NCBI GenBank assembly: GCA_947581835.1
Contig: CANPVV010000003.1
Location: forward strand, 643 to 64,642
Direction of reading: 5' to 3'
Source: an uncultured Bacilli bacterium
Lineage (GTDB): Bacteria; Bacillota_I; Bacilli_A; RF39; UBA660
Length of the DNA: 64,000 nucleotides
Part shown: positions 22,256-24,314 of the stretch, piece by piece
Layout: each line of letters starts with the position of its first letter
Position numbering within the stretch: position 1 is the stretch's first letter
The notes under the pieces: generated by a model
Told to the model about the DNA's origin: nothing
Database searches by the model: none
Seen by the model: only the letters and a program-made list of their open reading frames with translations
Made by a program: the position numbers and the translations under genes

Positions 22256-23296
22256 GTGGATAGTAAGGTTAAAAATATATTAATTGGAGTTTTATTTATT
22301 TTATTTATGATTAGTTTAGCGGTTATTTATTATTTGGTTAAGGGTAGTAGTAATGAGGTTTTAACAATTAAAGGAAATGTAATTGTTGCGAGTGATGATT
22401 ATGTGATTATTGAGGGAATAAATGAGGATTATGTTATTAATAATATAAAAGGACAGTATAATGTTGGGGATGAAGTAGAATTTAAATATAATAAAAAAGA
22501 TTTAAATAGTAAAGTTAGTCCTAAAACTATTAAAGTTAGTGATGAGGAATTGATAAAAGTTGGGGATAATGATTCAGATGAGGATAGTAATATAGAAGAA
22601 AATAGTAGTTCAGGAAATAATAGTAGTAACAGTAGTAATAGTGGAAATAGTGTTGATAAGACTAATAATGGGGGTACTACTACTAATAATAATGGGAATA
22701 ATTCAGCTAATGAGAAAGATGCAGTAAATAATCAGAGTAGTAGTGGAACTAATAGTGGTAATTTAATTAATAGTGAGAAAGAGAGTAATGGTAATAGTTC
22801 TAATAGTAGTAGTGCAGTAAGTGATGCTGATAGTTTAGTGTTAAGTTATTTTGAAGATTATCAAGCAGATATTAATAGTGAGAACTTAGGTAGTAGTGTT
22901 AAAAGTGGATTTGTTAGTATTGTAGATTTCTTATTTTATAATGGAACTATTAAAGGACATACTTTTGGAGAATTAACAGATAGTGCTAAGTTAAAAGTTT
23001 TAGCGATGGCTTTATATTTTGATGGAAAGATAGAAAAATATTTTCCAGGTTATAAAGAAAGTATTAGTAGTGCAACTAATAAAGTGTATACAAATATAAA
23101 AGAGGAGATAGTAACTACTTATTTAAATGTAGCTTCTAAAGTTTGCACTAGTAATAGTGATGCTTGTGAGAAAGCTAAAAATGGTTTTGCAGAGTTAAAG
23201 AAGAATTTTAGTTTAACTTGGGATTTAATTAAAGATATTGCGGGAGATGGACTTACTAATTTAAAGAATTGGTATGAAATTTGGAGAACAACTTAA
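22256..23296 (+). CDS. Hypothetical membrane-anchored protein with an Asn/Ser-rich linker
   Basis: GTG start and an N-terminal TM segment (ILIGVLFILFMISLAVIYYL). An ~90-aa N/S/G low-complexity region separates it from a C-terminal globular part. No family recognised. Confidence 0.6.
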   Translation: MDSKVKNILIGVLFILFMISLAVIYYLVKGSSNEVLTIKGNVIVASDDYVIIEGINEDYVINNIKGQYNVGDEVEFKYNKKDLNSKVSPKTIKVSDEELIKVGDNDSDEDSNIEENSSSGNNSSNSSNSGNSVDKTNNGGTTTNNNGNNSANEKDAVNNQSSSGTNSGNLINSEKESNGNSSNSSSAVSDADSLVLSYFEDYQADINSENLGSSVKSGFVSIVDFLFYNGTIKGHTFGELTDSAKLKVLAMALYFDGKIEKYFPGYKESISSATNKVYTNIKEEIVTTYLNVASKVCTSNSDACEKAKNGFAELKKNFSLTWDLIKDIAGDGLTNLKNWYEIWRTT

Positions 23297-23304
23297 ATAT
23301 TTGT

Positions 23305-23333
23305 TTGACAAATGATAATCTTTATGATAATAT
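23305..23333 (+). promoter_or_regulatory. Promoter of the antitoxin-repeat / toxN transcript
   Basis: TTGACA (23305-23310), 17 nt, then TGATAATAT (extended -10, TAATAT at 23328-23333). Confidence 0.5.
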
Positions 23334-23359
23334 TTAGATATGCAAGAAATTGCAGATAA

Positions 23360-23475
23360 AAAAGCGGTGATTCCCACCATAAGAGGAACTTAATAAAAGC
23401 GGTGATTCCTACCATTAAAAGGAACTTAATAAAAGCGGTGATTCCCTACCATAAAAGGGACTTAAAAAAGTGATT
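23360..23475 (+). ncRNA. Type III antitoxin RNA (ToxI/antiQ-like): three full repeats plus a partial one
   Basis: Direct repeats at 23360-23394 (35 nt), 23395-23430 (36 nt) and 23431-23466 (36 nt). Consensus AAAAGCGGTGATTCCnACCATnAAAGGnACTTAAT, with a truncated fourth copy (AAAGTGATT). The GGTGATT...ACC core resembles ToxI. The array lies immediately upstream of a ToxN/AbiQ homolog. Confidence 0.78.
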
Positions 23476-23499
23476 AGAGAGCTTACTCTAATCTTTTTT
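23472..23499 (+). terminator. Rho-independent terminator between antitoxin repeats and toxin gene
   Basis: Perfect 8-bp stem GATTAGAG (23472-23479)/CTCTAATC (23486-23493) with a 6-nt loop, followed by TTTTTT (23494-23499). Confidence 0.7.
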
Positions 23500-23500
23500 C

Positions 23501-23529
23501 TTGACAATAAGTTATGGTAATGATATACT
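23501..23529 (+). promoter_or_regulatory. Candidate second promoter directly upstream of toxN
   Basis: TTGACA (23501-23506), 17 nt, then TGATATACT (extended -10, TATACT at 23524-23529). Confidence 0.4.
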
Positions 23530-23555
23530 CACTTTAGTAAAGGAAGTGGTATATT

Positions 23556-24056
23556 TTGAAACATTTTATATTGGTGCAAGTAGATTATATGTACTGCAAT
23601 TATTTAAGAAAATTTGATAGTAAAGTTTGTTATAATTTTGGCTTTAAAAGAATTAGACCTTTTGTAGGAGTTTTATTTGAGGTTAATAATATTTTATATT
23701 TTGCTCCTTTATCTAGTCCTAAAGAAAAGCATTTAAAAATGAAAAATACTATTGATTTTATAAAGATTGATAATGGAAAGTTAGGAGCTATTAATTTTAA
23801 TAATATGATACCAGTTATTGAAGGGTGTTACGAAATAATTGATTTAAATAATAAAAATAATGAGAAATACGCTCATATGCTTAATATGCAATTGTTTTGG
23901 CTTAATAGAAATTATGATAGAATTAAATATAAAGCTAAAACTTTGTATAATAAATATATAAATAATACTTTAGATAAAAGAATTAAAAATAGATGCTGTA
24001 ACTTTCCTTTATTAGAAGAAAAATGTTTAGATTATCATGTAAAAATAAAAGTGTAA
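23556..24056 (+). CDS. Type III toxin-antitoxin system endoribonuclease toxin, ToxN/AbiQ family
   Basis: 166 aa with a TTG start after AAAGGAAGTGG. It aligns by eye with Pectobacterium ToxN: YL.KFD.KV; F.G.....(Y)FAPLSSPK.KH versus YLAPLTSPKKWH; G.INFNNMIPVIE versus GLINLKFMIPIIE; CNFPLLEEK versus CNFSLLEEK. Confidence 0.9.
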   Translation: MKHFILVQVDYMYCNYLRKFDSKVCYNFGFKRIRPFVGVLFEVNNILYFAPLSSPKEKHLKMKNTIDFIKIDNGKLGAINFNNMIPVIEGCYEIIDLNNKNNEKYAHMLNMQLFWLNRNYDRIKYKAKTLYNKYINNTLDKRIKNRCCNFPLLEEKCLDYHVKIKV

Positions 24057-24072
24057 AATAAAGAAAATTTAG

Positions 24073-24102
24073 TTGAATAATTTTTGAAATATATGATATA
24101 AT
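24073..24102 (+). promoter_or_regulatory. Promoter of the putative 6S RNA
   Basis: TTGAAT (24073-24078), 18 nt, then TGATATAAT (extended -10, TATAAT at 24097-24102). This places the TSS near 24109-24111. Confidence 0.45.
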
Positions 24103-24109
24103 AATAGTA

Positions 24110-24285
24110 CCTAAAGGTTATAGTCTATTTTACATAAAACCGACTATGAGATAATATTGGGGGAATAATTACATATGGAGTTGAATGCTGGTCTTGATTT
24201 GCCAGAATCCAGAAGTATGTATGTTTCTTACCACCTGCGAGTGCGCGGGCTTTTATCGACAGATAGACTTCTCCTTTGGGTTTTT
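24110..24285 (+). ncRNA. ssrS: Probable 6S RNA (SsrS/BsrA-like), ~176 nt
   Basis: Non-coding and GC-enriched. The 5' end pairs with the 3' end to close a rod: CCTAAAGG (24111-24118) with CCTTTGGG (24273-24280), AGTCTAT with ATAGACT, and ATAAAA with TTTTAT. There is an internal helix (TACATAT/GTATGTA), an apical hairpin (CTGG..CCAG), and an unpaired central region with a small 3'-side hairpin (CCTGCG/GCGCGG). It ends in TTTTT. It lies upstream of tcdA. Confidence 0.55.
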
Positions 24286-24314
24286 ATTTGCTATAATTTA
24301 GGGTGGTGGTAATT

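Follow-up and report, generated by a model that had tools for sequence, protein, structure and literature searches.

A stretch of 64,000 nucleotides from an uncultured Bacilli bacterium (GenBank assembly GCA_947581835.1, contig CANPVV010000003.1; here called the window) carries, between positions 23305 and 24056, a locus that is very probably an intact chromosomal type III toxin-antitoxin module of the ToxIN/AbiQ family. Judged against described systems, this kind of module is already well known: it appears to be of the ordinary type, in which a small repeated RNA (toxI) neutralises an RNA-cutting toxin (ToxN). A chromosomal ToxIN in a low-GC gut bacterium is no surprise to a specialist. The sole departure from the textbook ToxIN layout is a predicted second promoter, P2, situated directly 5′ of the toxin gene.

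Toxin, antitoxin array and terminator

The operational definition of a toxIN locus is a set of repeats followed by a terminator and a toxN homologue, with an upstream promoter preferred although not strictly demanded (Blower et al., 2012; PMC3401426). The window holds all of these parts: tandem repeats, a terminator, a toxN homologue and a promoter in front (Table 1). Its repeats (35/36 nt, 3.1 copies) and its toxin (166 aa) are close in size to the toxIN averages, which are 38.1 nt, 2.8 copies and 168 aa, and chromosomal loci made up 57 of the 67 in the 2012 toxIN survey (PMC3401426). An earlier sequence-only reading of this DNA had proposed a tandem array, a terminator, a promoter and a 166-aa open reading frame (ORF) in a ToxIN/AbiQ-like layout. 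All four features are where it had placed them, and the layout is corroborated by the published definition, by a match to the Pfam family PF13958 and by the recurrence of the same order in 75 of 80 related loci. The present analysis adds promoter P2, a 5′ hairpin (23341-23354), a non-ATG start codon and the variable content of the genomic slot. The related loci come from a scan of one genome per species, which returned at least 559; the 80 closest form the comparison set. Nearly all of these belong to uncultured gut Bacilli labelled 'Tenericutes', Mollicutes or CAG-1000, which we take to be RF39-type lineages.

Table 1. Features of the locus and its immediate neighbours, in window coordinates
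Feature	Positions	Strand	Basis or remark
Gene for 346-aa protein	22256-23296		no Pfam match
P1 -35 hexamer, TTGACA	23305-23310	+	consensus scan; predicted promoter of the array
P1 extended -10, TGaTAATAT	23325-23333	+	consensus scan
5′-terminal hairpin, TGCAA-GAAA-TTGCA	23341-23354	+	predicted start of toxI transcript; minimum-energy and centroid folds
toxI unit 1, 35 nt	23358-23392	+	Tandem Repeats Finder; covariation for both stems
toxI unit 2, 36 nt	23393-23428	+	Tandem Repeats Finder
toxI unit 3, 36 nt	23429-23464	+	stem 2 TCCC/GGGA in place of TTCC/GGAA
Partial fourth unit, AAAAAGTGATTA	23465-23476	+	merges into terminator stem; same arrangement in relatives
Intrinsic terminator (8-bp stem, 6-nt loop, T6)	23472-23499	+	terminator scan and fold; stem GATTAGAG/CTCTAATC at 23472-23493, T6 at 23494-23499
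P2, sigma-70-type candidate promoter, TTGACA-17 nt-TGaTATACT	23501-23529	+	between terminator and toxN; 11/12 plus TG (consensus scan); -35 hexamer 23501-23506, extended -10 ends at 23529
Ribosome-binding site, AAGGAAG	23540-23546	+	9 nt upstream of the TTG start
toxN, 166-aa predicted ToxN/AbiQ-family endoribonuclease toxin, TTG start	23556-24056	+	Pfam, PADLOC, solved structures
6S RNA gene	24105-24286		Rfam, 48.9 bits vs gathering score 46.4

The predicted toxin matches the Pfam profile ToxN_toxin over profile positions 3-159 of 159 (E 1e-49; 169 bits vs a cut-off of 25), so that the profile search suggested as a check on the first reading returned a significant, full-length hit. It also matches the PADLOC 'AbiQ' model, which spans the whole ToxN/AbiQ family (E 2e-39). 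Among solved structures, matches of ~150 residues were obtained with ToxN of Bacillus thuringiensis (4ATO, 8e-24), Pectobacterium (2XD0, 3e-21) and Escherichia coli (7D8O, 2e-18) and with AbiQ (4GLK, 1e-10), placing the toxin nearer ToxN proper than AbiQ. The motif blocks that had been quoted as shared with Pectobacterium ToxN do align. The active site of the latter comprises Tyr29, Lys33, Thr52, Ser53 and Lys55 (PMC5086642). The last four align with R34, S53, S54 and K56 of the window toxin, of which R34, S54 and K56 are invariant and S53 is nearly invariant in 30 homologues. Arginine is found at the Lys33 position of B. thuringiensis ToxN as well, and AbiQ has Ser at the Thr52 position (PMC5086642).

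The TTG start of toxN is also used in independent gene calls on metagenome contigs 99.94% and 84% identical at the DNA level. Comparison with the 84% identical homologue L085 (the related loci are numbered L001 onwards) gives a dN/dS of 0.15; toxN is thus under purifying selection. The near-identical contig, L084 (from ERZ27249221), matches at 99.94% over 3122 nt and has two differences only, both in toxN. One, T>A at 24013, changes Leu153 from TTA to a TAA stop codon, which removes the conserved LEEKC tail; the other, G>A at 24015, alters the next codon. Coverage at both is ~3x, and the stop codon may be a sequencing error.

The array was called by Tandem Repeats Finder at 23360-23470 (period 36, 3.1 copies, 91% matches, score 176) and has no spacers between its units, in agreement with the repeats of 35, 36 and 36 nt plus a partial fourth described beforehand. 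The linkers of the array are A-rich (AAUAAAAG or AAAAAAG). Direct reading of the Pectobacterium plasmid pECA1039 confirmed that its ToxI has in common with the window repeats the core GGTGATT...ACC, a resemblance also noted beforehand. CRISPR and other repeat classes were considered and rejected: there are no spacers, toxN lies directly 3′, and the repeats have a ToxI-like pseudoknot fold.

As shown by covariation across the related loci, each toxI unit is predicted to form an H-type pseudoknot. Stem 1 is a GGUG/(C/U)ACC hairpin, and stem 2 is formed by its UUCC loop and a downstream GGAA. In unit 1, for instance, 23366-23369 would pair with 23375-23378 (stem 1) and 23371-23374 with 23385-23388 (stem 2). 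Both stems are retained in all three units of the window, including unit 3, in which stem 2 is changed on both strands. The units of related loci have the consensus AAAAAAGCGGUGAUUCCCACCAUAAGAGGAACUU and vary by paired changes, stem 1 occurring as GGUG/CACC, AGUG/CACU, GGC/GCC or AGC/GCU and stem 2 as UUCC/GGAA, CCC/GGG, ACC/GGU, GCCC/GGGC or UUGCC/GGCAA.

Pairs were counted on 61 distinct 34-nt units, drawn from 35 loci and aligned without gaps, with the structure .......(((((.[[[[))))).....]]]]... as template. Default MAFFT alignment had misplaced the 3′ strand of stem 2 in longer units and was replaced by a sequence-only L-INS-i alignment and this gapless set. Paired cells amount to 88.2%, compared with 79.0 +/- 0.7 in shuffles, and the covariation score is 0.300 vs 0.134; none of 500 shuffles was as high on either measure, and controls with slid partners reached at most 0.084. 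Changes on both sides affect three stem-1 pairs and one stem-2 pair in this set, and the stem-2 pair types in a wider unit set are UA, CG, UG, AU and GC. Since the outermost (8-22) and innermost (12-18) positions of stem 1 are often unpaired, the firm core consists of three stem-1 pairs and three to four stem-2 pairs. By our own reading, the pseudoknot strands follow the same order in antiQ of pSRQ900 and in ToxI of pECA1039 and of one plasmid each from B. thuringiensis and Fusobacterium.

Variation is also found among units of a single array. In L008, L011, L013, L019, L023 and others, as well as in L001, L003, L007 and L028, units often differ by compensatory stem-1 changes, with variants that include CUAGUG/CACUA, GAAGC/GCUU and GCGGC/GCC. 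Some related arrays alternate two unit types in the order A-B-A-B, and the last unit often has an extra base in the 3′ strand of stem 2 (CAGUGAAC vs CAGGAAC). The compensatory differences suggest selection for fold over sequence, and perhaps against recombination between units. Such arrays are ready material for testing ToxI specificity.

The terminator was described earlier as a perfect 8-bp hairpin followed by T6, and it is exactly that. Five terminator-like sites were counted in the 1.5-kb region, compared with 0.3 expected from shuffles, and most related loci have a terminator at the same position. The gap from terminator to start codon is 56 nt (23500-23555), slightly more than the 1-50 bp usual in toxIN loci. 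Terminator stems are usually free to drift in sequence. The stem here is nearly the same across ~60 related loci although their toxins are only 55-65% identical; it reads ACUAGAG...CUCUAGU in most loci, whereas the window and a few others have AUUAGAG...CUCUAAU.

Several results weigh against the assignment. NCBIfam has no model that matches the toxin, and the equivalent of Tyr29 is ambiguous: the alignment points to F30, but Y26 is close by and almost invariant. Minimum-energy folding of the entire toxI transcript gives a structure no better than those of shuffles (z -1.19), a value that is expected for pseudoknots in AU-rich RNA and is uninformative either way; this fold did recover the 5′ hairpin and the terminator. 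In Rfam the repeats match no family, and the ToxI model RF02519 gives no match even at E values up to 10, so that the covariance-model check proposed for the first reading came out negative. The sole Rfam match in the region, the whole window and 22 related loci is 6S RNA. When RF02519 (34 nt) was run on L081-L083, it matched B. thuringiensis-type repeats only (up to 59 bits) and missed those of Pectobacterium and Fusobacterium, which argues that its failure on the window reflects a narrow model and not a different kind of RNA. Finally, the candidate promoter P2 departs from the published model of type III systems, in which transcription is bicistronic from a single promoter and the toxin is reached only by read-through of the terminator (PMC5086642). 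This makes it uncertain how RNA and protein are balanced at the present locus.

Predicted promoters of toxI and toxN

The array is preceded by the predicted promoter P1, a sequence match of 10/12 plus TG with a 17-nt spacer, in line with the near-consensus promoter of the sequence-only reading. Its -35 hexamer, spacer and -10 region are kept in the syntenic locus L001 and are recognisable in L086 and L089. Transcription of toxI would start near 23340, directly in front of the 5′ hairpin, which both the minimum-energy and the centroid fold of the transcript recover. L001, L003 and L007 have a GAAA-loop hairpin at this place with a different stem sequence and complementarity kept, and comparable hairpins with another loop occur in L086 and L089. 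The hairpin may serve as a stabiliser of the RNA.

P2 lies between the terminator and toxN. A match of at least 11/12 arose in only 54 of 20,000 shuffles of the 62-nt gap of the window. Sites of this quality are present in 13 of 75 loci vs 0.13 expected, the maximum in 300 shuffles being 2. In the aligned 10 P2 loci TTGAC and TAnnnT are invariant while spacer and flanks diverge; the 84% identical L085, for example, keeps the hexamers and has a diverged spacer. On a rough neighbour-joining tree P2 is found in all eight members of the clade of the window and recurs elsewhere, in one further small group and in isolated loci. The gap is longer in P2-bearing loci than in others, which accommodates the promoter. 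P2 is absent from the four reference loci that were read (Pectobacterium, B. thuringiensis, Fusobacterium and AbiQ), where there is no room for a promoter because only ~12-20 nt lie between the T-run of the terminator and the start codon. No description of an internal toxN promoter was found in the literature searched, a search that did not extend to the primary AbiQ papers.

These observations suggest that the locus may consist of separate transcription units in the clade of the window, P1 giving rise to the terminated toxI RNA only and P2 to toxN, a proposal for which the chances appear evenly balanced. If it is true, two promoters together with a weak start codon, and not terminator read-through, would determine the RNA:protein ratio, and the toxI and toxN halves could be kept or lost independently, as in L086, an orphan array, and L002, a toxN with P2 and without an array. 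The view of how toxin and antitoxin are balanced in type III systems would change with it. In Pectobacterium ToxIN, ~90% of transcripts terminate (PMC4147584). The earlier claim that the terminator sets the ratio of RNA to protein may be incomplete for this locus, where the conserved, near-consensus P2 lies between it and toxN.

It is possible, if somewhat doubtful, that the locus is instead a canonical single-promoter ToxIN, in which P2 is a chance string in AT-rich DNA and toxN is expressed by terminator read-through only, as in Pectobacterium. One promoter is what the published model states (PMC5086642), and promoter-like sites are common at 26% GC, with 11 observed and 10.2 expected at ≥9/12 in 1.5 kb. 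About 60 of the 75 relatives, moreover, have a gap of 31-57 nt with no full promoter in it, and in L089, which occupies the same genomic slot, the best site reaches only 10/12. A chance string is hard to reconcile, however, with the rarity of sites of ≥11/12 plus TG among the gap shuffles, with the excess over expectation across loci, and with hexamers that stay invariant amid diverging surroundings. The same can be said of its presence throughout the clade of the window, of the longer gap that makes room for it, and of the toxN of L002, which carries a P2-type promoter with no array at all.

An imperfect inverted repeat of 15 nt, 80% complementary, was also noted in this interval. One arm, 23462-23476, covers the last part of the array and the adjoining 5′ strand of the terminator; the other, 23526-23540, coincides with the -10 region of P2 and its predicted start. 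In transcripts that pass the terminator, the two arms could pair at the expense of its stem; the repeat could also be due to chance.

Relatives and the genomic slot

Database relatives of the toxin number more than 2400 proteins. The best identity among the representatives is 66% (L003), and because none exceeds this value the species of the window is not itself among them. The order shared by the 75 loci is an array of 34-42-nt units, typically in 3.2 copies, then a hairpin terminator and toxN. Of the five loci that lack this order, L057 is truncated at the end of its contig. L002 (3700-4001) and L012 (3400-4001) have toxN with a strong P2-type promoter and no tandem array within 600 nt upstream. 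The first of these has a short terminated RNA region without repeats in the place of the array, and it shares a metagenome-assembled genome with L028, which has a complete ToxIN with array. Phage-borne mimics of ToxI were sought in IMG/VR with GCGGTGATTCCNACCAT and rejected; six isolated matches inside unrelated GC-rich coding sequence, lacking both an array and ToxN, are attributed to chance. Relatives of ToxN in viral contigs number only four, at ≤45% identity, so the subfamily is not typically phage-borne.

Upstream of the module are hisS, aspS, a second class II synthetase, gatCAB and the gene for a lineage-specific 346-aa membrane protein. Downstream are 6S RNA, tcdA/ThiF, a double-HTH regulator, gpsA, an MgsA/RarA-type ATPase and an XerC/D-type recombinase. 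The frame of gatCAB, the 346-aa gene, 6S and ThiF is common to related genomes, and the slot between the 346-aa gene and 6S varies in content. It holds ToxIN in L001 and L089, a HerA-like DUF87 ATPase in L087, a LEM-3-type GIY-YIG protein of 243 aa in L088 and a CAP-domain protein of 383 aa in L090. In L002 a DUF87 ATPase stands together with the toxN that has its own promoter and no array; the DUF87/HerA-like ATPases of the slot measure 633-639 aa. The slot looks like a small variable hotspot, possibly of the defence type. No integrase was found beside it in L087, L088, L090 or L002.

In L086 (GCA_947589695.1, 5393-5585), the closest related species by the 346-aa protein (66% identity), the slot has P1, the 5′ hairpin, three foldable units and the terminator, followed by the 6S promoter, with neither toxN nor P2. 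By its sequence this array is an antitoxin left without its toxin. That L086 has kept toxI and lost toxN hints indirectly at toxicity in the relatives, as does the nonsense allele of L084.

The first reading had called the module a small defence islet rather than part of a prophage, and its core-gene flanks, with other cargo or a toxI remnant at the same slot in relatives, bear this out. That reading had also described the module as inserted, which is accurate as to its position between core genes and not as to a recent event, since toxN is at the same site in three other species of the lineage (L001, L089 and L002). The toxins of L001 and L002 are 63-65% identical to that of the window and the flanking proteins 52-74%; the toxins have thus diverged to much the same extent as their neighbours, and the module is no newcomer. 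At 22-29% GC its base composition does not differ from the flanks and gives no sign of recent transfer.

The 6S gene begins 49 nt past the toxN stop codon, behind a promoter of its own (TTGAAT at 24073, an 18-nt spacer and TATAAT to 24102). With no terminator in between, transcription of toxN probably continues into ssrS. The idea that the module and 6S RNA are functionally linked was considered and rejected; the adjacency is confined to the lineage of the window and concerns location, not mechanism. A 45-aa ORF at 24175-24312 lies within 6S and is spurious. At the N terminus of the 346-aa protein is a membrane segment, followed by a long low-complexity middle rich in Asn and Ser and a conserved C-terminal half; its gene is kept downstream of gatB in ~150 related genomes.

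Proposed mechanism, alternatives and known systems

By homology with characterised systems, the module is proposed to work as follows. P1 would give a ~160-nt transcript comprising the GAAA-loop hairpin, three full units and the partial fourth, ending at the terminator. ToxN would be made at a low level from the weak TTG start, through terminator read-through and, in this clade, probably P2. As in Pectobacterium, B. thuringiensis and AbiQ/antiQ, the toxin would cut the precursor into single units within the A-rich linkers; the sites cleaved by related toxins are A-rich (AA^AU, A^AAAA and A^AAA; PMC7781912). Single units would bind ToxN monomers head to tail in a closed complex with the active site blocked. 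An infecting phage that shuts off transcription in the host, or lowers the level of the labile RNA in some other way, could leave ToxN free to cleave A-rich RNAs and abort the infection. Abortive infection is thus expected by analogy with tested relatives, and a role in phage defence in the native host is reasonably probable.

A working toxin-antitoxin pair might also persist as a selfish or locus-stabilising element with no useful phage defence in its host, which is unlikely here. The biological function of chromosomal type I and III loci is still questioned (PMC4147584), core genes surround the module and no second recognised defence gene is beside it, and toxN is lost or broken in close relatives. 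Yet the family members that have been tested, Pectobacterium ToxIN and AbiQ, confer abortive infection (PMC4147584), the nuclease and ATPase cargo found at the slot in relatives looks like turnover of defence genes, and toxN is held under purifying selection. Far less probable still is a decaying or attenuated remnant, with a toxin no longer active and the array a fossil. The nonsense codon at position 153 in a near-identical strain, the complete loss of toxN in a related species (L086) and the weak TTG start would agree with decay. An ORF of full length relative to the Pfam profile, conserved catalytic-site residues, the low dN/dS, both pseudoknot stems in every unit, and two promoters and a terminator near consensus all speak against it.

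The assignment to a family adds little by itself, as ToxIN is known to be common in Bacillota chromosomes. More useful, if modestly so, is the record of a ToxIN subfamily in uncultured gut Bacilli that is very large and uncharacterised and whose antitoxin RNA has clear covariation and no Rfam model. The slot beside 6S, moreover, offers a natural decay series: intact module, nonsense allele, toxI without toxN and toxN without toxI. The P2 clade, this series and the un-modelled ToxI subfamily are useful, incremental additions to the known systems with which the module of the window can be compared.

The closest solved structure is that of B. thuringiensis ToxIN (pAW63 type, 4ATO; E 8e-24). This system has the same order of promoter, array, terminator and toxN, ~3 repeats of 34-36 nt with an A-run linker, Arg at the Pectobacterium Lys33 position and, by our own reading, the same strand order of GGUG, loop, UACC and downstream loop partner. 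It differs in that its toxin is only ~36% identical and plasmid-borne, its repeats are matched by RF02519 whereas those of the window are not, and ~20 nt between terminator and start codon leave no room for P2. Pectobacterium atrosepticum ToxIN (pECA1039; 2XD0/2XDB/2XDD) is the founding abortive-infection type III system. It shares a homologous toxin (E 3e-21, 35% identity), 36-nt repeats with a GGUGAUU...ACC core and a terminator between array and toxN. In contrast to the window it has 5.5 repeats instead of 3.1, the linker AAAUUC instead of AAUAAAAG, ~12 nt from terminator to an ATG start, a single promoter and a location on a gammaproteobacterial plasmid.

Another relative is AbiQ/antiQ of Lactococcus lactis (pSRQ900, 4GLK), the antiQ features of which were read directly on the pSRQ900 sequence. 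The PADLOC AbiQ model recognises the window toxin (2e-39), and the two systems have in common 35-nt repeats (2.8 copies in antiQ) followed by a terminator and toxin gene, Ser at the ToxN Thr52 position and a low-GC Bacillota host. The AbiQ toxin is more distant (E 1e-10), however, its repeat sequence is different, it is plasmid-borne, and it has ~17 nt from terminator to start and no P2. The closest toxin in the plasmid collection, at 46% identity, belongs to Fusobacterium plasmid toxIN loci (e.g. pKKCOM1330A). Their repeats, AAAAAAGUCGGUGUACUCUACCGUAUAAGUGAGAACU, likewise have an A-run, a GGUG...ACC stem and a loop with a downstream partner, but the annotated toxin is longer, P2 is absent and the system is plasmid-borne. 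CptIN and TenpIN resemble the window module in their tandem-repeat RNA antitoxin, terminator and endoribonuclease toxin. Their repeats average 44.8 and 50.9 nt (PMC3401426), longer than those of the window, and their toxins belong to other families, whereas ToxN_toxin is the sole Pfam match in the toxin of the window.

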